Assembly (NCBI GenBank): GCA_965197475.1
Contig: CBDANF010000003.1
Coordinates: forward strand, 928,001 to 992,000
Length of the DNA stretch: 64,000 bases
Direction of reading: 5' to 3'
Origin: Candidatus Poribacteria bacterium
GTDB taxonomy: Bacteria > Poribacteria > WGA-4E > WGA-3G
Made by a program: the position numbers and the translations under genes. The stretch's first letter is position 1; each line of letters begins with the position of its first letter. The notes beneath the pieces are model-generated. The model was not told where the DNA came from. It did not search any database and was given only the letters and a program-made list of their open reading frames with translations. This document shows, piece by piece, positions 871-16,973 of this stretch.

Positions 871-2028
871 TAATACCATTTCTGAATAATTATATTCCAT
901 TTGCGACTTTCGTGAAATATTTAAAATTTGTGATTTGAGCAATAGCTGCCTTCGTATACTTTCTCAAGATTTGTGTGATTTTGTCCTGCATTTCCTCTAT
1001 TGACCCCAATGTGTGCTGAAACAATTTGGCTTTGATGTCTTGCCAGAGTCTTTCGATCGGGTTCAACTCTGGACTATAAGGGGGTAGAAAAATCAAGGCG
1101 ATATTGTCAGGAAGTTGTAGCGATTTCGCCTGATGAAAACGACCATTATCAAGCACAAGGACATTTAGCGTCTTTGGAAAAGTCTTTGCTAACTCATCAA
1201 TGCATACTTGGAAACAGACACCATTGAGCCAGGGCATTTCAAGGAAGAAACTTTCTCCTGTTATCGGTTCCACAGCTCCGTATAGATAAAGGCTCTGGTA
1301 AGTGTGATCAACATTGGCAATCGGTTTAACACCGCGTAAGGTGGGATGCCGAGACGACACAGGCAAAAGACCACACCTTGACTCGTCTTGGCAAAAAAGT
1401 CGGACGCTTTGAAAAGAAGATGCCTTCTCCGAAATCACCTCCTCAACTTTGGTAGCGAAGTTAGCAACGAACGCATCACACGCTACATCGTTTTTTTATG
1501 ACTTTTGCGAGGCACTTTGAGTTTCGCATTCCATTTATACCGAACTAACGCATGAACTGTTTTATAGTGCATTTGGACACCGAAGGTTTCTTCAATATAA
1601 TCTGTTATCTGTTGATAACTGGAAAAACCTTCTGGTTTTTGAAGTTCCGCTCGCAGCAGCTCTTGTTGTTCTTTGGATAACCGAGGGGGACACCCCGGGG
1701 AATAATCACGATCCAAAAGCGCATCAAGTCCTTTAGTCTCATAAGTCACTATCCAGTGTCCAATCGTTTTTCGGCTGACACCTAACCTCTCAGCGACTTG
1801 CTTGCGAGTTATTGCTTGACCACTACGAAATAGGTAAAGGGCTGTCAATCTTTGCTTTTGATAACCTACTGATGTCTTTCTCAACAGCCTTTTCAACTCT
1901 GAAACACTTTCTGTAATCTCTGGAGGCTTTATGTGCATTGGTATCAATCCTATGATTTGTATAATTGGAAAAAGTATAGCAGAAATTGAAAACTTTTAAA
2001 AGGATAAATATATACAAGAAATGGTATA
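871..2028 (-). mobile_element. IS630-family insertion sequence
   Basis: Terminal inverted repeats ATACCATTTCT (873) / AGAAATGGTAT (ends 2027) with flanking TA; two-ORF transposase inside. Confidence 0.85.
890..1947 (-). CDS. IS630 transposase (orfA HTH 1483-1947 + orfB DDE 890-1438), probably joined by -1 frameshift
   Basis: orfB has FCQDESR, VLDNGRFH and LPPYSPELNPIERLW motifs. An A7 slippery run lies at 1491-1497 at the end of orfA. Confidence 0.9.
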
Positions 2029-2160
2029 AATAGATGTGTCAAATTTTGTCAATAGTCTGGAAAGAAAGTCCATTAGTTATTATAACATTTCGCCCTGATG
2101 GGGCTGCTCCCAAGATGTATTTCCCACAAGTTTTCAATTAGTTTTCGGTATAAACCACTC

Positions 2161-2195
2161 GTAGATTGGGTTGAACACCGTGAAACCCAATCTAC
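2161..2195 (+). repeat. GTAG-type REP palindrome related to the RAYT-flanking REPs at 40 kb
   Basis: GTAGATTGGGTTGAACACCGTGAAACCCAATCTAC versus GTAGGTTGGGTTGAGCTTGCGAAACCCAAC at 39991. Confidence 0.7.
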
Positions 2196-2198
2196 TTA

Positions 2199-3251
2199 CT
2201 AACGGAAACGTATTGAAGCCCCAGCCGTGAACTGCAATCGGTTTATGAGTTGTATCCCCGTTAGATTTTGATACACCGGTATCTGAATCTCAAACGCCAA
2301 ACGGTTCCGTTGAAAAGGCACTCCTGTAGGGATCATAAAATCAGTTGAAATAGCGATGTCAAGCTGCGTGTTGCCCTGGGAATCTATTTGGTGGATTGGA
2401 CTTCTGTTTTGATTCAACTCAGGATCGCTGCTGCTGAACGCCGCTTTGTGTGAAAATAGAAGCCTCCCTCCAAATTGGAACCAATTGTTTACGCGTTGTG
2501 TGCTCCAAGCGGTCACAGTGAAAGTGTTGCCATGCCGATATTTGCGCGCATTTTGATGTAAGGGTAAGGAACTGAGCAATTGACTACCATAGCTCCAGTC
2601 CTCTTTTGTGCCGAAAAGGGTGACACCCGGACGCGCTTCATAGGAACCACTACCCAGTTGCATTGGGTAAGGTAACACCTCCCCGTCATCTCCCGTTTCT
2701 GCGATACTCCCAGTTGGTAATGAAATACCGATGTTTCCGGTGAGCGTAAAGTACTCTTTTTTTAATAGCGTGAGCAGCGCGTCAAATTTGACATCGCCAA
2801 AACCTTCACTGTCTCTATTATATATCCCGACAGGCTGTTTTTGATGGCCTCCTTGTTGCTGATATGAACCTTCCATCTGCATGATGTGCTCATGATAATT
2901 CATTATCGCCATCAAAGTAATATGATCATGCGGGACGTAGATGGCACTGTACATCTGTGTTGACGTAATCATATGCTTTGGTGCCAGCATATAATCTTGT
3001 AGCACATCTGCTGTTTCAAGCGTATCTGTGCCAGACTGCAATGCCTGCAAACCTATCACCGTGCCTCGGTAGCTGAACATTGCATCACCTGCTTTATGTC
3101 CATGGTCGGCTATTACACCAATAGGTGCGTTCCCATCAAGGCGAGGTGTTGAGGTATCCGCGAAAGTGACAGACAACGTGAGTAGAAAAAGGGTAATGCT
3201 GAGTGTTATTCCCAAAACATTTGGTTGCCAACGAAACTTTTTAAATAACAT
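2199..3251 (-). CDS. Putative outer-membrane 'transporter' family beta-barrel protein (MetA-pathway-like)
   Basis: Signal peptide, APIGVIADHGHKAG, GFGDVK, GISLPTGS and YPMQLGSGS motifs, and a C-terminal aromatic residue. Confidence 0.7.
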   Translation of the reverse strand: MLFKKFRWQPNVLGITLSITLFLLTLSVTFADTSTPRLDGNAPIGVIADHGHKAGDAMFSYRGTVIGLQALQSGTDTLETADVLQDYMLAPKHMITSTQMYSAIYVPHDHITLMAIMNYHEHIMQMEGSYQQQGGHQKQPVGIYNRDSEGFGDVKFDALLTLLKKEYFTLTGNIGISLPTGSIAETGDDGEVLPYPMQLGSGSYEARPGVTLFGTKEDWSYGSQLLSSLPLHQNARKYRHGNTFTVTAWSTQRVNNWFQFGGRLLFSHKAAFSSSDPELNQNRSPIHQIDSQGNTQLDIAISTDFMIPTGVPFQRNRLAFEIQIPVYQNLTGIQLINRLQFTAGASIRFR

Positions 3252-3261
3252 AATAATCTCC

Positions 3262-3303
3262 TCATTTAGTTCAAATACCCGCGTGGGGATTTGAACTAAA
3301 TGA
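3262..3303 (-). promoter_or_regulatory. Perfect 15-bp-stem hairpin abutting the RBS of the transporter gene
   Basis: TCATTTAGTTCAAAT-N12-ATTTGAACTAAATGA, directly followed on the minus strand by GGAG and ATG; no U-tract. Confidence 0.55.
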
Positions 3304-3377
3304 CGAAAGAACTAATGGAAAGCCTGCACTTGAACTACAACTTTAGTCCAAACACAAGCTTCTGAATTATCCTGAAT

Positions 3378-4826
3378 TTAGAATATTCCGTCAATCACTT
3401 CACCTTTGACCAACTCACGTGGTTGTTCTAAGTGATTCAGCACGATAGTGTGCGGGTCAATACCGAGCGTATGGTAAATCGTAGCGAGGATATCTCGCGG
3501 ATGCACAGGTTTTTCAAGCGGTGTTGAACCCGTAGCATCAGACTTACCGTAAACCTGACCACCTTTGACACCCGCACCAGCGATTAGACCGGTATAACAA
3601 TAGGGCCAGTGGTCACGTCCATCAGGTGCGTTACCATTACCAGAGGTACTAATACCCATTCGTGGTGAGCGACCAAATTCACCGATAGCAAGCACAAGCG
3701 TTTCCTCTAACATGCCGCGCTGATCTAAATCTTCAAGCAGTGAAGAAACCGCACTATCTAACTTGGGACAGTGTAGGTTTTTCAGTGGGCCGAAGTTCGC
3801 TGCATGCGTATCCCATGCCGTTTCATTCGGGTTGCCGTTTGCAACAGAGGGCCAGTTCACCTGTACGAAACGGGTGCCTGCTTCAACCAGTCGGCGTGCA
3901 AGGAGCGCGCTCTGACCAAATGTATGGCGACCGTATTTGTCACGCATTTCATCAGGTTCCTGCGACAAATCAAACGCATTACGTGCTTTCTGAGACAAAA
4001 TGAGATTATACGCTTTTTCATAATACTCGTTCAGCGCGTAAGAATCAGCCACTTTGTCAATTTCTGGCATATTGGCGTTAATCGTTTCAAGTAGCGTTTT
4101 GCGACGCTGTAACCGAGCAGGCGGAATTTCTGGACGTAGCGTCAAATCATCAAGTTTTATCTCTTTATTGGGGTCCTGGAAAAGAAAATATGGGTCATAA
4201 GCTCTGCCGAGGAAACCCGCATTTCCGCCTTTACCGATGATACCACTCTCCTGCATTGGACGCGGGAGTTGGACAGCTGCTAACATCGGTTCATCTGGCG
4301 GTCTGAACTTAGCGATATGTGCTGCAGCATTTGGATGATCTGCAGGAGACGGTGGGTCAAGTTGTCCCGAAGGTGCAACCTTGTCCGGTGTTTCACCTGT
4401 AACCATCTGATACATCGCAGCGGTGTGATTGAAAAGTCCAGCTGGCGTATAACTTACTGAACGGATAAGACATGCTTTATCCATCTGTTTCGCTAAACGC
4501 GGCATCGTCTCTGACAACTGAATACCGGGAACATTCGTTGGAATAGGATTAAATTCACCACGGATATTAGACGGAGCATCCGGCTTTGGATCCCAGATAT
4601 CAATGTGACTCGGTCCGCCTTGCAAAAAGAGCAGAATGACAGAATTTGCTTTGCCCCAACCGTTTAGAGGCATCGCGGGGTCAACTGTCGTGCTTGCCTT
4701 GGCTTGGAGTGACAATACTTGTGGCAGGCTAATGCCCAGCATCGCCGCGCCACCCACGCGGAGAAATTCCCGACGTGAGAACCCATCACATAATCTTCCG
4801 GGTGCTTGTGGTAACGAAATCATCAA
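3378..4826 (-). CDS. DUF1501 domain protein (Tat signal)
   Basis: SRREFLRVGG Tat motif, GGPSHIDIWDPKP, ARRLVEAG, WDTH, GEFGRSP and GRDHW. Confidence 0.9.
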   Translation of the reverse strand: MMISLPQAPGRLCDGFSRREFLRVGGAAMLGISLPQVLSLQAKASTTVDPAMPLNGWGKANSVILLFLQGGPSHIDIWDPKPDAPSNIRGEFNPIPTNVPGIQLSETMPRLAKQMDKACLIRSVSYTPAGLFNHTAAMYQMVTGETPDKVAPSGQLDPPSPADHPNAAAHIAKFRPPDEPMLAAVQLPRPMQESGIIGKGGNAGFLGRAYDPYFLFQDPNKEIKLDDLTLRPEIPPARLQRRKTLLETINANMPEIDKVADSYALNEYYEKAYNLILSQKARNAFDLSQEPDEMRDKYGRHTFGQSALLARRLVEAGTRFVQVNWPSVANGNPNETAWDTHAANFGPLKNLHCPKLDSAVSSLLEDLDQRGMLEETLVLAIGEFGRSPRMGISTSGNGNAPDGRDHWPYCYTGLIAGAGVKGGQVYGKSDATGSTPLEKPVHPRDILATIYHTLGIDPHTIVLNHLEQPRELVKGEVIDGIF

Positions 4827-4934: not shown

Positions 4935-7424
4935 TTAACGGTTAAATAAAAACGCGGGACTATTGATTAATGCCCACAATAAATCTTGCGCGCCTTCCTC
5001 TTTCGATTCAGCTTTTGCAAGATGTTCAACCGCTGTCGTATATTCATTTTCCTCCGGTAACCGAGCAAATGTTGCAAGGTACAACTCTTCAACAAGGACA
5101 CGGTCGTCCTTATTGTCTTTGAGGAGTTTTGCAATTCGTCCATTTGGATCAATAATTGCATTCGCAACTGTCGGACCGTTAATAAGGTTCATTGCGTGTG
5201 CCAGGCTTACCTCCGTTGTCCGTTCACATTCACATGAACTTTCACGTTCTGGACGACCGAACAATTTCAAAAATCCATCATCCTTTACTCTGCTGTCCGG
5301 TAATTGTACAGCACGGAAGTTTTTCGGCACACCCTGAAACTTCGGTTGACTTCCCGTAGCAACACCGATAGCATCTAACAACTGTTCAGCTGTCAAACGT
5401 CGTGCGGTTGCGTGTGAGAAATTAATCGTATCCTCTTTGTTCCACTTGTTGGTCTTGATACTCTGTTGATAGGTGCGAGAACGGGCAAGTGTTTTCATGA
5501 TATGTTTCATGTCAAACCCGCTGTCCACGAAATCTTTCGTCAGCGCATCAAGCAAATCCGGATTACTGGGTGGGTTGCTTGTCCGTATATCATCAACCGG
5601 TTCAATGATACCGCGCCCCATGAAATAACTCCATATACGATTTGCACCTGCTTTTGCGAACATAGGATTCTCAGATGATGTGAGCCATTCAGCAAGAGAT
5701 TCACGTTGATCAGCAGCATCTTTCTGGACTTCGCCAAATGGAACAGATGGATTAACAACAGCTAACGTTCTCGGATGTTTAACCGGACTCGGACTAAAAC
5801 TAGCGTATACGATTTCATCACCCGGTAAACGTCCGTTTTTCAGCTTGACACCTGAGAAAAATGCGCCTAATTCGTAATACTGATTTTGCGTCCATACCTC
5901 AAACGGATGGTCATGACATTTATTACAGGCGAATCGAACGCCAAGGAAAAGTTGCGTCGTATTTTCCACAGCCGCAGTATATTCGCGCGAGACACGGAAA
6001 TAATTTGCTGCAGGATTGGCATAAGTACTGCCAGTAGCAGTAATCAGGTCATGCACAAATTGGTTATAGGGTCGATTTTTTGCAATTGACTCATGTATCC
6101 ATTCTTGGAAAAGCCACATGCCGCGTTCACCGAGGAATTTACGGTTCGATTGCAATAGGTCACCCCATTTATGTGTCCAATGGTCAACATATTCGGGTGT
6201 TTCGACCAGTATATCAATCAATTTTTCTCGCTTTTCCTTGGCAGGTGTTTTATCCGCAAGGAAACTCCGTACCTGTGCAGGATCTGGTGGAAGTCCTGTC
6301 ATATCGAAATAAATCCTACGAACGAACTCTTCATCTGTGCAAAGTTCAGATGGTAGAATCTTCAGTCGCTTCAGTTTGTTATGGACATGCGTATCAATGT
6401 AGTTGTATTCTGGTGTTTTAACCCATTCGTAACCACTCCGATCACCCATAACGATGATGCCGTTTGTGCTATATGCTCCCTCATATCGGGTTAGGATAGC
6501 GGTTTCTCCGCGGCGTTCTGCAGTTACCATACCGTCACCAGTTATTTTCGCAACTTCGTTGACACTACTGGTGAATTTTGCTTCACGGGTAACATCACGG
6601 GTCGTTCCATCTGGATAATGGGCAATTACCAACATTTGTTGTTTCGTCCCCGGCATAGACAATTCAGCGGATTCTGGAAACACCTCTAAGCTCTCAACAC
6701 GTTGGGTAGTTTCTACATCAGAGACAACCCCTTCACTTATCCACTGATGAATGAGATTGTAATCACGCGAATCCGGGACAATCACCTGACCCCCTTTGTG
6801 TGGCACTTCAGATGTTGTTTTGAGCAACATTAAACTCTGTTCGGGGAACGCACGATTAAACCGCCGTCCAGATATATCTTCAATCAGGAGTTCATAGTCA
6901 AAATCTGGATCGTAACCGCGCAGTGAAAGTTTGAAACCGTTTTTGCCTTTTGCAGAACCGTGGCAGGTGCCGCTATTACAACCGGCATGGCTTAGAATGG
7001 GCATCACATCTCGCACAAAACTCACTGGCGGTGCGTCAACGCTTGCAACGTTCACCGGTAATTCTGTGCTGATGCCTTTCACTGTAACCTTAATTGTTGC
7101 AGGACCAACTGAATTCGGAAAGATGTAACCATCTTCAAGCACCTTTACCCCTTCTGAGGTAGGTTTGAGAACTGCCGAAGACGTAACATCAACCCATTTT
7201 CCATCTTTAGTTTGCCCCGAAACAAGCACACGGCGACCATCGCGCGCATGCTCTAACGTCAACGACTCCGGGTGAGTCTTCAACGCTTTAATTTCAGGAA
7301 TGTCTACACTCGGTACAGCTTCCTCCATCTGGCTCCAACTTGAATGTTGAAATACCAAACAGCAGAAAAATACGATAAGGAGTGTAACAACCAAGTTATA
7401 CCTGAGTTTCACATTAACCTCCAA
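4935..7424 (-). CDS. DUF1549/DUF1553 planctomycete cytochrome-like protein with Ig-like (Big_2) domains
   Basis: GCNSGTCHG, FKLSLRGYDP, CNKCHDHPFE, NPPSNPDLLDAL, FGRPERESSCECER and WALINSPAFLFNR. Confidence 0.9.
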   Translation of the reverse strand: MEVNVKLRYNLVVTLLIVFFCCLVFQHSSWSQMEEAVPSVDIPEIKALKTHPESLTLEHARDGRRVLVSGQTKDGKWVDVTSSAVLKPTSEGVKVLEDGYIFPNSVGPATIKVTVKGISTELPVNVASVDAPPVSFVRDVMPILSHAGCNSGTCHGSAKGKNGFKLSLRGYDPDFDYELLIEDISGRRFNRAFPEQSLMLLKTTSEVPHKGGQVIVPDSRDYNLIHQWISEGVVSDVETTQRVESLEVFPESAELSMPGTKQQMLVIAHYPDGTTRDVTREAKFTSSVNEVAKITGDGMVTAERRGETAILTRYEGAYSTNGIIVMGDRSGYEWVKTPEYNYIDTHVHNKLKRLKILPSELCTDEEFVRRIYFDMTGLPPDPAQVRSFLADKTPAKEKREKLIDILVETPEYVDHWTHKWGDLLQSNRKFLGERGMWLFQEWIHESIAKNRPYNQFVHDLITATGSTYANPAANYFRVSREYTAAVENTTQLFLGVRFACNKCHDHPFEVWTQNQYYELGAFFSGVKLKNGRLPGDEIVYASFSPSPVKHPRTLAVVNPSVPFGEVQKDAADQRESLAEWLTSSENPMFAKAGANRIWSYFMGRGIIEPVDDIRTSNPPSNPDLLDALTKDFVDSGFDMKHIMKTLARSRTYQQSIKTNKWNKEDTINFSHATARRLTAEQLLDAIGVATGSQPKFQGVPKNFRAVQLPDSRVKDDGFLKLFGRPERESSCECERTTEVSLAHAMNLINGPTVANAIIDPNGRIAKLLKDNKDDRVLVEELYLATFARLPEENEYTTAVEHLAKAESKEEGAQDLLWALINSPAFLFNR

Positions 7425-7492: not shown

Positions 7493-8314
7493 TTACCTCT
7501 GGTTTTTCAAGTTTCCCCACATTATCGGCAACTTGCCGTATGAGGATACATCTAAATATTTCGATTCACTCACTAACCAATCAATAACGTTTTCTGTAAG
7601 TTGCTCTAACTGGTCAATATCTTTATTATTCGCGTGGTAGTTTGGAAGTCGCCAATTCATGTTGAATACCTTGCCTTTTCCTGCTTTCCAATAACCGAAA
7701 GCTGCAATACCATCACCCCAATCGTTCGCTGGGGGACCCTAAGCGTTGGCAAGCGTAATAAAATTCTTCCAAAGTTTGTTGTAATAGTCACCAGTATTCG
7801 GATATCCAGTCGAATTAACCTGAATCCTATCACCAAGTTTCGGTGTGTCTCCATCAATATTCTTTAGACCGTCAACTAATTTGTGGTCAAGTGTCTCTTG
7901 GAGTACGGTAATGCCGACGTTCTGTCCATCGTCTAGTACAGGCGGAAACCCACGCGGTTGAGCATCTTCCAACCCCATCGGTGTAGCATAACGAATAGCC
8001 CATGCTGTCAACAATACTGCACCGTCGCTTTCAGCGTAGTCCAAAAACGCATCAATTTCTGCAGCGGACAATGCACCCGGATCGGTATCTCCTTCGTGCC
8101 ACCACACAACGGCAAACTTTTTGAACGTTGTACTCTTAAGGTCGTTTTTAGCCAATTCTGTCGTCTTATATGTCTCTTTTGCGAAATCCAGTGCAGGCGA
8201 AGTAAACGGTCCGTTATCTCCAAGATAGACAAAACCGACCTCTACTGCAGCATTTCCTATATTTAAACTACATAATACCATTAAAGTCAAGCAAAATACA
8301 AGTTTTCTATACAT
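7493..8314 (-). pseudogene. Secreted protein (DUF4960-like) with in-frame TAG at 7739-7741; frame continues to a Poribacteria-type C-terminal motif
   Basis: After LANA-TAG the same frame reads GPPANDWGDGIAAFGYW...DVSSYGKLPIMWGNLKNQR-TAA (7493). Confidence 0.7.
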
Positions 8315-8884: not shown

Positions 8885-10339
8885 TTACATCGGTCCAACG
8901 CGTTCAGGACCTCTGTCCATAGCAAATATTGACGCATCAAAACTTCTTTTTAACAAATCAAATTTAGTATCTTGCTTTTCTGACACATGCCATAGGTTGT
9001 TGAACTCATCCGGGTCATCAACCAAATCGTAGAGTTCTCCCTCTTCGTAACCGTGATATACTACCAATTTATAACGCTTATCCCGATACATCGTTGCGAA
9101 TGTGTGGTCACGCATGTCAAGCGCATTATAATATTCACACCGGACGAAGTCACGATGATGGTTTGCATCTGTTTCACCTCGGAGAATAGGCAATAATGAT
9201 CGTCCGTGCATCTGATCAGGGATAGGTAAACCCGCTAATTCCAACAGTGTCGGTGTTTTGTCAACAAGTTCAACGAGGGCGTTGCTTTCTAAACCGCTTA
9301 CAAAATGCCCTGGCAAGGAGAAAATCAACGGCACCCTGACTAATCCCTCATAAAACCGGCACCCTTTTTGTATAAGTCCATGATCTCCGAGTGTCTCACC
9401 GTGGTCGCTCGTGAAAATGATAACAGTGTTTTCACGTTGCCCTGTTTCATCCAAGACTTCCAGCATCCGACCTAACTGATCGTCAATCAGTTTTATCATT
9501 GCATAATATGCAGCCTTGAGTGTCTTGGCATCCCTTCCACCCACAATCTCAGCTTTAGTTTTAGTGCGCGGTGATCGTGGTAAGATCGGATCCCGTATGT
9601 CTAATTCATCTGGTGTTTGGACTTTCGACTGAAAATCAATTTGACGCAATCGGTGCTGCTGTTCTAAATCACTCTCCCTGAAAAGCGGTTCGGGCATGTC
9701 CGCAGGATTAAACTTTTCCCTATATGATTGTGGCGAATTGAACGGTGGATGCGGGTCATAGATATTAACACTCACAAGCCAAGGTCCGTCCCGTTCCTCG
9801 CGAATGAACTCAATCGTCTTTTCTGCACACCAAGTCGTTTGGTGTAATTCTGGTGGAACGCCCTCCGGATTCCTATTTAACTCACCAAGTGTATACCCTT
9901 TTGAACGAACCCAATCTGCGTAGTCGTGACCTTCCTCCCAGTCATCTCGTGGTGCGTGACTATACTGCCAATATTGATAACCGTCGTTTGCACGTGGTTC
10001 TACTCGGCGAAAAGCACTTGCAAGGTGAAGTTTGCCAATTAAGCCACAATCATAACCGATGTCCGCAAGTATACGCGTTACAAGCGGAAATGTGTCTGGA
10101 AAATAATCGTTCCCGTTACCATTAACATGTGTAGCATTCGGATACATGCCTGTCAAAAAACTCACACGACTCGGAGTGCAAATAGGGCTTTGACAATACG
10201 CATGTGTAAATGCTACGCCTTCTGCAACCAAACTATCAATATTTGGTGTTGACACATGCGGATTGCCTAACGCGCCTATCGTGTCATAACGTTGTTGATC
10301 AGTGCAAATCCATAGGATATTCGGATGTTGAATAGACAT
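8885..10339 (-). CDS. Sulfatase (formylglycine-dependent, Cys-type)
   Basis: PNILWICTDQQR, CTPSR signature, GKLH and SDHG. Confidence 0.92.
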   Translation of the reverse strand: MSIQHPNILWICTDQQRYDTIGALGNPHVSTPNIDSLVAEGVAFTHAYCQSPICTPSRVSFLTGMYPNATHVNGNGNDYFPDTFPLVTRILADIGYDCGLIGKLHLASAFRRVEPRANDGYQYWQYSHAPRDDWEEGHDYADWVRSKGYTLGELNRNPEGVPPELHQTTWCAEKTIEFIREERDGPWLVSVNIYDPHPPFNSPQSYREKFNPADMPEPLFRESDLEQQHRLRQIDFQSKVQTPDELDIRDPILPRSPRTKTKAEIVGGRDAKTLKAAYYAMIKLIDDQLGRMLEVLDETGQRENTVIIFTSDHGETLGDHGLIQKGCRFYEGLVRVPLIFSLPGHFVSGLESNALVELVDKTPTLLELAGLPIPDQMHGRSLLPILRGETDANHHRDFVRCEYYNALDMRDHTFATMYRDKRYKLVVYHGYEEGELYDLVDDPDEFNNLWHVSEKQDTKFDLLKRSFDASIFAMDRGPERVGPM

Positions 10340-10415
10340 ATATTGTCCTATTTCAGGGCAATCTTTATATCGGGTTTACAAAACCCTCCTACAAGAAAAG
10401 ATAGCGGAACTCACA

Positions 10416-12020
10416 CTATTTGGCAGTCGCGGTAAATCCTGCTGTTTTAATGACTTTTGTAAGTTCATCAACTGTTACTGAGTTTTTCCGCACCTTAATA
10501 ACCGCCTGGTCGGGTAGAGAAACTTCAGCACTGATAACGTTTTGATGTTTTGTAAGTGCATCCTGCACTTTAGCGACACAAGCTCCTCACGTCATACCTG
10601 ACACTGCCAAGGCTACTTCCTCGCTAGCAGCCGTTTTAATTGGCACGGACATGAAAATGTTCAATTGTTTGCCAGAGTTAGCGTCAAATATACGGATTTT
10701 TCCATCAAAACCGCCCGTGGCGAGTTGCAGTTGCGCGCCATCAGGGTGAAAAGCAAGCGCAAACACACTCACAGTATCGCCCTGCATAGATAAAAGCCGT
10801 TTTCCGTTTGCTACGTTATAGATACGTGCTTCACCCGAAGAACCGCCGACTGCAAATTTGCTTCCATCTGCCGAAAAAGCGACTGATTGAATTGAACCCG
10901 ATTGAGGTTCATACGCACGGATAAGGTTGAAGTCTGTGTTGCCGACATCTCTACGGGTTTGACGGAACATTCTGTAAAGCCGAGGAATTCGGTCTTCTCC
11001 AACACTCAAAACCTGGTCTGCATTTGGGTGCCGCGCAATAGCGTTGATTTCTCCGTAGCCTTTGTTGCTTGAGTTAACATCGTCTACAAACGATCCTGTG
11101 TTTACTTCAACTAATTTGAGCGCAGTATCACGACTACAACTGACAAAATGTGTGCCGTCTGTAGAAAAAACAGTCCCGAACACCCAATCACCGTGATTAT
11201 CAAATTTTACAAGTTCCTTCTCGTCCGCAACAGAGATAACGCGTACTGTTTTATCTGAACTTCCAAACGCAACGCGACTGGCATCAGGTGAGAAAGAGAG
11301 TCCGTAGATCGTATCATAAGTGGAACGTATTGCTTTGGTGAGTTTATTTGTAGTGGTATCCCATAGCTGCACCTCGCCAAATTGTGCTGGGGAGCCACCT
11401 GCTACACCCAGTATTTTCCCGTCTTTGGTATAAACGATTGATTGTATCCGCCGCGCTTTTCCTACCAATCGTGCTTTTAGCTCAAAATTCTTTGTGTCAT
11501 ACAACAGAACTTCTCGGACGCCAGACACAGCGAGCATGCTTCCATCGGGTGAGTACGTCATAGCTGAAACAACCGGCGGCACCGTATAACTCGGGTAGTT
11601 TTCACCGTCCATTTCATCTGCTTTCGCGGGCGTATCATCTTTTGCTCCTTCAAGAATCCAACGTTGGATCAATGCTACCTCTTCAGCGGAGAGCGGTTCT
11701 TGGTTCTGCGGCATCGCAGGTGGGTCACCAGAGATAAGTTCAATTATTAAACTCTCATCCGGTTTTCCGGGGATGATTGCTTCTCCTGCCTTCCCACCTT
11801 GCTTGAGTTCAGCAAAAGATGTCACTATCAGATCGCCATTCGGATCGCCGGGGTGATGGCATCCTTGACAACTCCGTTTGAGAATGGGGAAAATCTGTGT
11901 GTGATAACTCACTGGTTCCTCTTTGGCATGGTTATCTGCCGCCACAAACGGACTCCACAGAACAAAACTGAGCAGAAAAATCCTTATATAATTCATAAAC
12001 TTCAATCTTAATATCTTCAT
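10416..12020 (-). CDS. Selenoprotein: planctomycete cytochrome c + WD40 propeller + C-terminal Sec-HMA domain (534 aa; UGA=Sec at 10587-10589)
   Basis: Signal peptide, CQGCH heme motif and WD repeats. Readthrough of the TGA gives VALAVSGMT-U-GACVAKVQDALTKHQNVISAEVSL...DELTKVIKTAGF, a complete HMA fold. A SECIS hairpin follows the UGA. Confidence 0.85.
10550..10586 (-). promoter_or_regulatory. Bacterial SECIS element
   Basis: After UGA: GGAGC-UUGU-GUCGCUA-AAGUGCA-GGA-UGCACUU-ACAA. The apical-loop G is at +24, and the apex resembles the fdhF SECIS (UGCAGGUCUGCA). Confidence 0.8.
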
Positions 12021-12429: not shown

Positions 12430-13411
12430 ATGGAAAAACAAGTCTTGAAGTTGAGTTTATGTTTTTTGGGACTGCTGCTTATAGTTACGGGTGGGTGTGA
12501 AAAAGAAAAAACAGAAGACATTACCAAGGTAATACCCGCGACTGAGAAAAAACTTAATGTCGTCGCAACAATTAGCATGATTACCGATATTTTGAATAAT
12601 GTTGGCGGCGATAAAATTGATGTTACCGGAATTATCGGCGAAGGGATTGACCCGCATCTCTATAAACCGACTGCAAGAGATACTAAGCAACTAACGGAAG
12701 CAGATATTATTTTCTACAACGGGTTGAACCTTGAAGTGAGAATTACAGGCACCGTACTTGACAAAATGGCAGATAAAACGAAAGCTGTCGCCGTAACAGA
12801 TAGGATTGATCGTTCACGACTACGGGTAGCGTCTGAATTTCTGGGTGGTTATGACCCGCATGTGTGGCATGATGCATCGCTCTGGATGAATGCGACTGAA
12901 AGGGTGCGAGATACGTTAACTCAAGCTGACCCTAAAAATGCCGAATATTATCATTCTAACGCAAAGAATTACTTGGCAGCATTAGAAAAATTGCATATTG
13001 ACCTGCAAGCCCTCGCAGCACAGATACCTGCTAAGCGTAAGGTTCTTGTCACGACACACGATGCGTTCGGTTACCTCGGAGGTGCTTACGGTTTTCAGGT
13101 GCGCGGACTTTTGGGTATAAACACAGAAGACGAAGTCGGCATCGCCGATGTGAGGGAGCTCGCGGCGTTTATCATTGAACCGTAAAATCCCAACGATGTT
13201 TGTTGACACCTCATCCTCGTCTCGAGGCATTGAGGCTGTTCAAGCTGCTGTTCACGCAAACGGTTTCAATGTCAAAATCGGTGGTGGTCTTTTTGCTGAT
13301 GCAATGGGATCGCCCGGAACGTCTGAAGGGACGTATATCGGCATGATGCGCTACAACATTGATACCATCGTGAACTCGCTTCAAACTGAGTTGGCTTATC
13401 AGGAGCAATGA
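12430..13411 (+). pseudogene. TroA/MntA-type Mn/Zn/Fe ABC transporter solute-binding lipoprotein, frameshifted near 13180
   Basis: Lipobox, DPHLYKP, YDPHVW and THDAFGY motifs. The C-terminus (KIPTMFVD...LFADAMG...TYIGMM) lies in another frame. Confidence 0.8.
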
Positions 13412-14088: not shown

Positions 14089-15074
14089 GGCTCATGTAAA
14101 AAGTAAGTGCTATTTTTTCAAAGTTATGTTAGCGTGTTACCTATGGACTTTCCAATACAATCTCTCCTGGATGAAGAAAAAACTCAAGCGTGGGTGTTGG
14201 ATCATTTCCACCTTCAAGGGCTGTGTTGCCCAAAATGCCAAGCGAGCGTGGCGGAGGCACGCAAGTTCCGTCCGACTGAAACAAGTGGTCTACAAGTGTA
14301 TCGCTGCAAACACTGTGAGAGCATCTACAACCTCTATACCGGGACGGTCTTTGCTGGCACGCAGTTTCGTCCCTCACAGGTCGTTCTGCTTTTGCGCGGT
14401 GTCTGTCAAGGTGTTTCAAGTGCACAACTCGGGTGTGAACTGGGTCTAAGTCGTCAAACCGTTCTTTCTATAAGACGTAAACTCCAAACTTCGGCAGAGC
14501 AGATACAACCCGAAGCTGCTTTACCTGATGCTGAAGTCGAAACAGATGAGATGTTTCAAAACGCCGGTGAAAAAGGCGATAAGCACGTTGATGCTTCGGA
14601 TCCGCCGCGTCGGCGTGGCAATAAACGCAGGGGACATGGGACTTATGACAATGATCGTCCGCCTATTGTTGGGACGAAAGGTCGCGAAAGCGGTCTCCTG
14701 AGATTACGTGTTGTGCGGCACACCGATTCTGCGACGCTTTCAACACACGTTCATCAGTGGACGTTGCCGACTTCAACGGTGTATACGGATGGTTGGCGTG
14801 GCTATAACCGTATTCAGCGCGCCCGTGAGATTGTTCTCCATAAGGATGGCGAGTGGGCAAGAGACGCAGACGGTGATGGTCTTTACGAGATCCATACAAG
14901 GACGATTGAAGGTGCCTGGACGACGCTGCGAAACTTCCTTCGTCCCTTTCGTGGCGTTCATAAAAAGTTCCTCGCCGGTTACGTCGCAATCTGTGAGTTC
15001 GTCATGAATCTAAAAGCTGTCAGTGTTGATTTTATAGCAAAACTCGTCAAAAGCACTTACTCTTGACATGAGCG
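14089..15074 (+). mobile_element. IS1595-family IS (986 bp, no cargo)
   Basis: IRs GGCTCATGTAAAAAGTAAGTGCT / AGCACTTACTCTTGACATGAGCG; 8-bp TSD ACTTTTTT at 14081-14088 and 15075-15082. Confidence 0.9.
14107..15066 (+). CDS. IS1595 transposase
   Basis: Zn ribbon CPKC...CKHC, VETDEM, YTDGW and TIEGAW motifs. The true start is probably ATG at 14143. Confidence 0.9.
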   Translation: MLFFQSYVSVLPMDFPIQSLLDEEKTQAWVLDHFHLQGLCCPKCQASVAEARKFRPTETSGLQVYRCKHCESIYNLYTGTVFAGTQFRPSQVVLLLRGVCQGVSSAQLGCELGLSRQTVLSIRRKLQTSAEQIQPEAALPDAEVETDEMFQNAGEKGDKHVDASDPPRRRGNKRRGHGTYDNDRPPIVGTKGRESGLLRLRVVRHTDSATLSTHVHQWTLPTSTVYTDGWRGYNRIQRAREIVLHKDGEWARDADGDGLYEIHTRTIEGAWTTLRNFLRPFRGVHKKFLAGYVAICEFVMNLKAVSVDFIAKLVKSTYS

Positions 15075-16091
15075 ACTTTTTTTAGCATAGGCTAAACCAC
15101 GATTTTTATACGCAATCGCACCATTGGGATTTAATTCAATCGCTTTGTTATGGTCTTCAATGGCGCGATCAACTTCTCCTTTGTCCTTGTAAATCACACA
15201 TCGATTGTTATATGCACTTGTATAATCAGGTTCCAGTTCAATAGCTTTGTCATAGTTTTGCAGTGCCATATCCATTTCACCCATGATACTGTAAACCTTG
15301 CCGAGATTGTAATAAGCACCAGCATTATTCGGTTTTAGTTCTATTGACTTTTTAAGGTCTGTGAAGGCTTTTTCAATCTCACCTTTTGCGCCGTAAGCAC
15401 TTCCTCTATGGTTATAGGCCTCAGCATAATTTCGGTTCAACTCTATTGCTTTATTGTAGTTTTTAATAGCGAGATCTAACTCACCTTTTCTGAAGTAAGC
15501 ATTTCCGCGATTGTTATATGCACTAGCATCATCTGGGTCTAATTCTATCGCCTTGTTGTAGTCTTCAATGGCGCGATCAACTTTACCTTTACTGAAATAA
15601 GCTGTCCCGCGGTTGCTGTAAGTCATAACATGATACGGATCACATTCTATCGCCTTGTTAAAATCTTTGATCGCTCTGTCAACCTCACTGTTGCTGAAAT
15701 AGGCTGCCCCACGGATGTTATATGCCATAGCATAATTTGGGTTTAGATTTATTGCAGTGTCATAGTCTGTGAAGGCTTTGTCAAACTCGCCCTTTCTGTT
15801 GTAGGCATTTCCGCGATTGTAGTAGACAAGGGGACTATCTGGGTCAAGTTCTATTGCTTTGTTATAATCTTTCGCAATGAGTAGTTTTGGACTTGAGAAA
15901 AATTTTAAAAAATCGCTATAAAGCCTTGTGTCCACTGGGTTTATATGGTATAATATAGATAAGAAAATAGGGGGTTGGTAGCCCCCTAAATGAACACAAA
16001 AAGCGAGTTGCTTTTTGACGGTTCTAATCTTATCTGGTATTATATCAGAAATCCGTCAGAAAAAGCAACTCCTATTTCAAGGAGTTATCTG

Positions 16092-16973
16092 ATGGATTTG
16101 TTGAAGGTGATGGAGCGTTTTCCCGATCAAGAGAGTTGTATTTCGCATTTAGAGAAGATTCGGTGGCGAGGTAAACCTGTGTGTCCGCATTGTGAAAGCG
16201 ATCATATAGGAGAACGGACAGAAACAGAAATCGGTCGTATCGGTCGTTGGAACTGCCACGAGTGCCAAGTGAGTTTCAAGGTGACGTGCAGGTCGGTGTT
16301 TCACGGGACAAAGATAGCGTTACAGAAGTGGTTTTTGGCTATTTCGTTGATAACGAATGCGAAGAAAAGTTTGTCAAGTCATCAACTTGCGCGCGATTTA
16401 GACTTGAATCAAAAGACAGCATGGTATATCATGACTCGTATCCGTGCTGAAATGGCAAAGAAAGGTAACGTGCTACTACAAGGCATCATAGAGGCAGATG
16501 AAACTTACATCGGGGGTAAACCTCGTAAGCCTAATAAGAAGGAAGACCACGTGCCTGCCAAGCGTGGACGTGGAACAGAGAAAGACGCTATTATCGGGGC
16601 AGTACAGCGGGGCGGGAAAGTTGTAGCACAACTCGCTAAAGATTTGACAGGACGGACTATTTTAGACTTTATCCGAAGAGTCGTCAAAGTTGAGGATTCG
16701 GAGTTGATGACCGATGAGTATAAGGCGTATCTCGCTATCGGCAAGGAGATGAAACACCATATCATAGATCATCAAACGCAATTTGTTGAGGGTGATGTCC
16801 ACACAAACACAATTGAGGGGTTTTGGAGTCTACTCAAACGAGCTTGGTATGGAAGTCATCACCACTACTGGACTAAATATACGCCCCTGTATGTAGCAGA
16901 GGCGTGCTATAAATACAACTATAGGAGCATTGACAGTATCTTTGATAAGTTTGTTAATGAAAGTATGCGGTGA
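16092..16973 (+). CDS. IS1595 transposase (copy A, 293 aa)
   Basis: CPHC/CHEC Zn ribbon, IEADETYIGG, MTDEY and HTNTIEGFWSLLKR. SD AGGAG precedes ATG 16092. Confidence 0.93.
   Translation: MDLLKVMERFPDQESCISHLEKIRWRGKPVCPHCESDHIGERTETEIGRIGRWNCHECQVSFKVTCRSVFHGTKIALQKWFLAISLITNAKKSLSSHQLARDLDLNQKTAWYIMTRIRAEMAKKGNVLLQGIIEADETYIGGKPRKPNKKEDHVPAKRGRGTEKDAIIGAVQRGGKVVAQLAKDLTGRTILDFIRRVVKVEDSELMTDEYKAYLAIGKEMKHHIIDHQTQFVEGDVHTNTIEGFWSLLKRAWYGSHHHYWTKYTPLYVAEACYKYNYRSIDSIFDKFVNESMR

Follow-up and report, generated by a model that had tools for sequence, protein, structure and literature searches.

In a 64,000-nucleotide (nt) stretch of the genome of a Candidatus Poribacteria bacterium (GCA_965197475.1, contig CBDANF010000003.1, positions 928,001-992,000 of the forward strand; hereafter the window), we find a minus-strand gene that appears to have been called too short. 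The called open reading frame (ORF) starts with an ATG at 12020 and ends after 477 codons at a TGA (10589-10587). Comparison with related genomes strongly supports the reading of this apparent stop, UGA478, as a selenocysteine (Sec) codon. Our best overall explanation, which we put at a probability of about 0.8, is that the gene encodes an exported selenoprotein of 534 residues, in which UGA478 would be decoded with the help of a selenocysteine insertion sequence (SECIS) hairpin, Sec would form part of a soft-metal site in a heavy-metal-associated (HMA) domain, and the protein would be a partner in a module with DUF1549/1553 and DUF1501 proteins. An initial annotation of the sequence had placed the TGA exactly at the first Cys of the HMA motif GMT-U-GA-C, and this is indeed where it lies.

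Reading the TGA as Sec (U) gives ...AVSGMT-U-GACVAKVQDAL... around residue 478 and adds 56 residues after U. The Pfam HMA match spans residues 471-529, so the domain starts upstream of the TGA and ends downstream of it, and the initial annotation had likewise described the frame as continuing for 56 residues as a complete HMA domain. In 35/36 orthologues of the genus, the distance from the TGA to a TAA or TAG is exactly 57 codons, without gaps. The ratio of nonsynonymous to synonymous differences (pN/pS) is 0.22 for codons 479-534 vs 0.14 for codons 30-477 (Nei-Gojobori method, 36 sequences). Judging from these alignments, the codons downstream of the UGA are under purifying selection and the tail is translated. 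The sole separate ORF in the tail has 50 codons (GTG start at 10568) and would lack both the first strand of the domain and the metal loop.

The read-through protein was searched against 60 relatives. A full-length orthologue is present in 35 of the 36 other genomes of the genus, 77-91% identical and each with exactly one in-frame TGA; the sole exception (G016) is an assembly in 300 contigs. In the extracted DNA, TGA stands at codon 478 in all 36 sequences of the genus and in four genomes of another family (f4), and one genome (G044) has TGC there. Using the last 144 residues to search 176 genomes across the phylum, we located the gene in 110 of the 112 f1 genomes (the source genome included). 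Each of the 111 matches carries one TGA (111/111; G101 has two copies), and the two f1 genomes that gave no match are both draft assemblies (300 and 170 contigs). Outside f1, the Sec form is present in one genome of family f3 (G081) and in the four f4 genomes, and codon 478 is TGA in 74/74 aligned Sec-form sequences. In nine genomes of the sister genera g6 and g17, codon 478 is TGC or TGT, as confirmed in G044 and in the eight others, whose DNA was fetched. By sequence, these nine Cys forms and the TGA forms are a classic Sec/Cys pair. Since the TGA recurs in 110 independent assemblies and belongs to such a pair, sequencing error is excluded. Being confined to two genera, the Cys forms would reflect a single event or two independent ones. 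A loss of the Sec trait was rejected as their cause, as selA is kept in 5/5 of the Cys-form genomes tested.

The genome also has the machinery to insert Sec. Matches above cut-off were obtained for selA (610.8 bits), selB (349.8 bits) and selD (370.4 bits, with one in-frame TGA of its own). A tRNA-Sec (75.1 bits, above cut-off) directly adjoins selB, and ARAGORN calls it as tRNA-SeC with anticodon tca (UCA). Elsewhere, TGA acts as an ordinary stop: it terminates 296 of 1395 long frames as well as 3 of the 14 genes nearby, and the f4 orthologues genuinely end at it. A reassignment of TGA is therefore excluded. The initial annotation had named the upkeep of a TGA or Cys among orthologues, the fate of the downstream frame, the presence of selA, selB, selD and tRNA-Sec, and the chance of a sequencing error as the points to look at, and on all of them the data side with a Sec codon.

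Downstream of the UGA lies a candidate bacterial SECIS. The initial annotation had described it as AAGUGCA-GGA-UGCACUU with a loop G at +24, and we recover it as such, with loop G residues at +24 and +25 from the first base after UGA and 23 nt between UGA and loop. In the legend of Fig. 2 of PMC13188914, the bacterial SECIS (bSECIS) model is given as a loop of 3-9 nt, an upper stem of 4-16 bp, a G in the first two loop positions (usually G then G/U), 16-37 nt from UGA to apical loop and a minimum free energy of -7.5 kcal/mol or lower. The hairpin fits this model on loop size (3 nt), stem (7 bp), loop G and spacing (23 nt).

We aligned the hairpin in the 74 Sec-form sequences (66 distinct), which come from five f1 genera, one f3 genus and f4. 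All 7 stem pairs are formed in 63 sequences, 6 in nine and 5 in two. The loop is GGN in 74/74 Sec forms vs GAA, GAG or AAC in 9/9 Cys forms, so that the second loop G is replaced by A in every Cys form (9/9). Within the stem, Val485 is GUG in 74/74 and Ala488 is GCA in 72/74 of the Sec forms. Across the genus, synonymous heterozygosity reaches its minimum over 530 six-codon windows at codons 484-489 (0.019; mean of the gene 0.425), where pS is 0.04 vs 0.60-0.65 elsewhere. Given this lowest synonymous diversity, together with a TGA at the same codon in 111 matches, the arrangement of hairpin and TGA is more than chance. The core motif of the hairpin occurs 9 times in the 5.7-Mb genome, and three of these occurrences sit 21 nt after an HMA TGA. 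One further match with a TGA 21 nt upstream was rejected as chance, its frame being full of TGAs. So small a SECIS, placed within the codons of helix 1, would limit residue 487 to codons starting with G.

Several results weigh against the reading set out above; those on the hairpin should count as much as the results in its favour. RNAalifold draws a 5-nt loop on 5 bp, retaining only 5 pairs, and finds no conserved lower stem. On the 74 Sec forms, compensatory double changes occur at 0/7 pairs; the changes are wobbles only, and column shuffles score equally. Folded by itself, the hairpin gives -6.4 kcal/mol and falls short of the bSECIS limit of -7.5; the stretch from UGA to +36 reaches -8.9 kcal/mol only by including an unrelated 3-bp helix, and an 81-nt stretch shows no gain in stability over shuffled sequence (z = -0.32). 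The Cys forms retain 4-6 of the 7 stem pairs, so the V-Q-x-A-L peptide or ancestry accounts for part of the stem. No Rfam SECIS was found in the whole window at gathering thresholds, nor in 10380-10700 at E <= 10. Beyond the hairpin, the haem domain (residues 48-108) is modelled poorly, with a predicted local distance difference test (pLDDT) below 50, and the assignment of Sec to UGA478 is comparative throughout. The two Rfam matches to small nucleolar RNAs in the scans of the window and of 10380-10700 were rejected as chance.

Other genes of the genome have in-frame TGAs as well. Two tandem small genes on the minus strand (G000:C3:1876423-1877335) code for lipoprotein-like exported HMA proteins with an in-frame TGA (GMTUGAC, GMVUGAC). 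The hairpin of the gene studied here recurs in both of these paralogues at an identical offset, with a GUC loop in one of them. Together with that gene, they give three exported UxxC HMA selenoprotein candidates in the genome. selD itself (L011, G000:C3:3099237-3100163) reads VKCAG-U-ASK, with a hairpin AGCUC-CGGGU-GAGCU 12-26 nt downstream; it is a second selenoprotein gene, independent of the first, and its loop is rich in G. A frame resembling pyridine-nucleotide-disulfide oxidoreductases (G000:C2:1319378-1320052), with a weak MerA-family match of 71.9 bits and one in-frame TGA, is possibly another selenoprotein.

Public gene calls miss the tail. In a collection of 5.8 billion proteins, the best 120 relatives are 446-494 residues long, all end at the UGA and cover at most 89% of the query; the names that their sources give, where there are any, read 'hypothetical protein [Candidatus Poribacteria bacterium]' or 'WD40 repeat protein'. 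With residues 425-534 as query, 33 proteins matched and the tail was covered by P0122 only, a Cys form reading GMTCGAC at the motif; this was a shared-word search, which fusions in other phyla could escape. Calls stop at the UGA in 120/120 best relatives and in 32/33 matches of the tail query, so that, for an entire candidate phylum of sponge symbionts, the databases lack both a conserved domain and a family of selenoproteins. The 81-residue tail was also searched by exhaustive HMMER against 1.84 billion representatives. The best 150 of the 3086 matches are mostly multi-HMA proteins and are uninformative on WD40-HMA fusions outside Poribacteria.

The layout of the protein is that proposed in the initial annotation, an exported cytochrome c-WD40 protein, with PSCyt1 at residues 51-104 and WD40 families between PSCyt1 and HMA in Pfam. 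A Sec-type signal peptide at about residues 1-28 is probable by eye from the sequence, and a helix is modelled at residues 2-21 of this region. The haem c motif CQGCH (11856-11870, residues 51-55) is invariant in 24 sequences at C51, Q52, G53, C54 and H55. The best 25 of the 45 families in the Pfam scan are PSCyt1, WD40-type and HMA families only, and the closest solved structures to the propeller, by sequence, are WD40 proteins. We modelled the protein with AlphaFold from 24 aligned sequences (mean pLDDT 74.6, predicted template modelling score 0.68). The modelled HMA domain has strands at 466-474, 495-501, 505-511 and 530-533 and helices at 479-490 and 517-526, giving the order beta-alpha-beta-beta-alpha-beta, and the mean pLDDT of 10-residue blocks is 74-92 across residues 461-534. 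In the HMA fold, the elements run beta-alpha-beta-beta-alpha-beta, and the CxxC loop joins strand 1 to helix 1; here, U478 and C481 lie at the start of the modelled helix 479-490. By sequence, the nearest solved structures to this domain are HMA domains of Cu ATPases, followed by MerP and CopZ.

Orthologues differ in this C-terminal part. In two genomes of genus g7 (G045, G054; loci L063, L064), natural orthologues stop just after the WD40 propeller and have no HMA tail, which makes the HMA domain an optional extra of the protein. The orthologue of genus g15 (L110, G081:C1:395000-408500, at about 1500-3370; also L073) has two tandem HMA domains, SGMTUGAC ... TGMTUGAC, each with its own TGA and hairpin, and would be a protein with two selenocysteines. 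The two copies in G101 (L074, G101:C53:6140-7730) are tandem copies of the C-terminal propeller plus Sec-HMA, about 1 kb apart, the second of them in a shorter open frame of 274 residues.

We propose that the gene gives a single exported product, with a signal peptide, a haem c domain (PSCyt1), a WD40 propeller and a C-terminal HMA domain with a GMT-Sec-G-A-Cys loop. As the comparisons suggest, SelB with Sec-tRNA(UCA) would be recruited by the minimal mRNA hairpin GUGCA-GGN-UGCAC, and UGA478 would then be decoded as selenocysteine, not as a stop. The pair Sec478 and Cys481 would coordinate a soft metal ion once the protein is in the periplasm, and the protein would act alongside the DUF1549/1553 haem-motif protein and the DUF1501 enzyme exported by the twin-arginine (Tat) route. 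When selenium is absent, translation would terminate at the UGA and yield a 477-residue protein without HMA, like the natural HMA-less homologues. The idea of selenium-dependent isoforms with and without the HMA domain, put forward in the initial annotation, is a reasonable one.

That metal binding is what Sec478 and Cys481 are for seems to us about an even bet. Selenocysteine has a lower pKa and a higher soft-metal affinity than cysteine. Our guess at the metal would be Cu(I) first, then Hg(II) or Cd(II). Cu(I) is favoured because a copper P-type ATPase is encoded in the genome (598 bits), whereas neither MerT nor a MerA above cut-off was found. Any such choice remains guesswork: the profiles of CopZ, MerP, MerTP and the MerA N-terminal domain score alike for the tail, all below their cut-offs, and the missing MerT and the best MerA-like match (388.7 vs a cut-off of 454.45) refer to a genome that is 92.7% complete.

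Of the alternatives, the one that survives best is that the UxxC motif forms, in place of a metal site, a redox-active selenylsulfide whose partner in electron exchange would be either the haem c domain or some substrate of the DUF1501 module. Most prokaryotic selenoproteins are treated as redox proteins with UxxC or CxxU (abstract of PMC9312934, tables of PMC13188914). In addition, the HMA domain is fused to a haem c domain with an invariant CxxCH, and no mer genes point to a dedicated metal route in the genome. We nevertheless consider a redox role unlikely, since both the fold and the motif match HMA metal sites (GMTCxxC, PF00403), the closest solved relatives are all metal-binding domains, and both catalogued Sec-HMA families are filed as metal proteins in the lists of PMC13188914.

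It is far less probable that UGA478 is read through without Sec, whether by near-cognate insertion of Trp or Cys or because TGA is reassigned. Read-through of this kind would equally keep the downstream frame under selection, and an assignment of Sec made by comparison leaves some room for it. It sits badly, however, with TGA ending other long frames, neighbouring genes and the f4 orthologues, with a full set of Sec genes, and with a conserved hairpin whose GG loop is invariant and lies at SECIS distance; the homologous residue, moreover, is Cys, the classic partner of Sec, at a metal or redox ligand position. The least probable alternative, that UGA478 is a true stop and the HMA tail an untranslated relic or a separate small ORF, can point to the public calls that all end there, to the homologues without HMA tail in G045 and G054 and to a hairpin without covariation support, but it leaves unexplained a gapless tail under selection, a domain whose first strand and GMT lie upstream of the TGA and would be missing from the 50-residue ORF, Cys forms that are continuous proteins, and the survival of a relic intact across 110 genomes in three families, so we regard it as highly implausible.

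The initial annotation had stated that Sec-containing HMA-like proteins are already on record, and the published lists in PMC13188914 bear this out: they include P-type ATPases with a UxxC motif and the family NF041115, both filed as metal proteins, the latter under the name 'UxxU_metal_bind' and as a 'putative mercuric reductase'. Our protein has the UxxC in common with the ATPases, and its NCBIfam ATPase matches are confined to the HMA stretch and far below cut-offs. In the Sec P-type ATPases, Sec replaces the first Cys of the CxxC in an HMA domain that forms the cytoplasmic N-terminus of a membrane pump. The HMA domain described here instead stands at the C-terminus of an exported haem c/WD40 protein, for which the best 25 of the 45 Pfam families include no P-type ATPase domain. 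Among NCBIfam families, NF041115 matches the tail best, but its scores (38.9 bits with the whole protein, 44.3 with the tail alone) stay below the cut-off of 95. Its members have two Sec residues (UxxU) and stand alone at about 74 residues, whereas our domain is fused and has one Sec (UxxC) and an invariant Cys481. From the tail match and the UxxU motif, we infer that NF041115 has an HMA-type fold with Sec as first ligand. MerP (TIGR02052; PDB 1afi, 1osd), which binds Hg(II) in the periplasm, is likewise an exported HMA protein with a GMTCxxC-type loop (34 bits to 1afi), but it has Cys in place of Sec and belongs to mer operons, and our protein scores 36.2 vs a cut-off of 92.55 for TIGR02052.

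The setting of the gene also has a known counterpart. Clusters of DUF1501, PPC, PSCyt1-Big_2-PSCyt2-PSD1 and PSCyt1-WD40 proteins were described in Planctomycetes and Verrucomicrobia (Kamneva et al. 2012, PMC3542564); there, as here, PSCyt1 is followed by WD40 in a protein that adjoins a PSCyt2/PSD1 protein and a DUF1501 protein with a Tat signal. Our module differs in lacking a PPC gene, which those clusters have, and in its host, Candidatus Poribacteria, the organism also named in the sources of 75-87% identical proteins. The clusters as described in the text of PMC3542564 have no HMA domain and no selenocysteine, and 'HMA' and 'heavy metal' have 0 mentions in it. In the main text of PMC13188914, WD40, Planctomyc, PSCyt, DUF1549 and Poribacteria have 0 mentions; the supplements of selenoproteome surveys may list the family. 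Literature searches, judged by titles and the beginnings of abstracts, returned no paper on a Sec-HMA protein of this type or on selenocysteine of this kind in Poribacteria. On the sequence comparisons above, the protein is an HMA selenoprotein outside both catalogued families. Its architecture and module context are new, as far as searched; Sec in an HMA metal site is already known, and what we describe is therefore a new architecture, not a new principle. It adds an exported, haem-linked setting to the few known cases.

Five genes follow downstream on the same strand, the fifth of them coding for a Phenol_MetA_deg-like protein (Table 1). The order of our gene, DUF1549/1553 and DUF1501, all on one strand, recurs in 11/12 genomes from 10 genera, which upholds the link to the DUF1501 / DUF1549-1553 system drawn in the initial annotation. 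The DUF1501 protein is 82-97% identical and syntenic in 11/12 genomes. These three genes adjoin one another without interruption in f4 and in the genomes with the Cys form. The sulfatase is found at this place in 7/8 of the f1 genomes examined and is absent in 4 genomes of f3 and f4; the gene for the 191-residue protein is syntenic in 7/8 of the f1 genomes examined. From the window and loci L105-L116, the insertion of these two genes is confined to family f1, and in genus g11 the 191-residue gene is present but the sulfatase is not.

Table 1. Positions in the window of the proposed selenoprotein gene, its parts and the genes of the adjoining module.
Feature	Position	Strand	Remarks
Full selenoprotein coding sequence	10416..12020	-	534 residues plus TAG stop at 10416-10418; public calls stop at 10587
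Probable signal peptide, Sec-type, about residues 1-28	11937..12020	-	K/R-rich start, hydrophobic IFLLSFVLWSPFV, then VAA|D; read by eye
PSCyt1 (Planctomycete cytochrome c)	11709..11870	-	PF07635, 38.7 bits vs cut-off 22, residues 51-104
WD40 beta-propeller, about residues 150-465	10626..11573	-	Pfam WD40 families; beta-strand blades confident in the model
HMA domain, residues 466-534, split by the TGA	10419..10625	-	PF00403, 38.9 bits vs cut-off 24.8, residues 471-529
UGA codon 478, read as Sec, putative first ligand of the GMT-U-GA-C site	10587..10589	-	Conserved TGA/Cys position
Cys481, putative second ligand of the UxxC site	10578..10580	-	Invariant in 24/24 aligned proteins; TGT/TGC in all 74 DNA rows
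Candidate bacterial SECIS, 7-bp stem AAGUGCA / UGCACUU, loop GGA (10561-10563)	10554..10570	-	17-33 nt after the UGA
Sulfatase	8885..10339	-	Pfam Sulfatase, 167.9 bits; between the selenoprotein and DUF1549/1553 genes
Exported 191-residue protein	7739..8314	-	No Pfam family at E <= 1e-5
PSCyt2 + PSD1 (DUF1549/DUF1553)	4935..7424	-	Pfam, 161.1 and 160.2 bits
DUF1501 protein, twin-arginine motif SRREFLR	3378..4826	-	Pfam, 350 bits

DUF1501/PSCyt modules are abundant and unexplained, and a metal-binding appendix on one of their subunits would be a testable clue to their function. A tentative extension, which we think has only a small chance of being right, is that the PSCyt1-WD40 subunit carries, in the form of its Sec-HMA domain, a detachable sensor or trap for metal that is gated by selenium, and that the modules act on a soft periplasmic metal or are governed by one. 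Poribacteria would then tune the system through UGA decoding, making the full-length protein with selenium and, without it, an HMA-less one such as genus g7 has. We count in its favour the three exported UxxC HMA proteins per genome and the relative with two tandem Sec-HMA domains, which also point to a lineage-wide, selenolate-based handling of periplasmic metal in these sponge symbionts. If true, it would provide the first functional handle on the modules.

On its other side, the selenoprotein gene is flanked by a ZnuA-like gene facing away from it (12430-13185, plus strand), which matches positions 1-204 of a 263-position profile. This gene was rejected as a functional partner, as it stands beside the orthologue in 0/12 relatives examined. 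Two IS1595-type transposase frames follow it (14107-15066 and 15990-16973, both on the plus strand). Since the ZnuA-like gene adjoins the orthologue in none of the 12 relatives, this flank looks rearranged.

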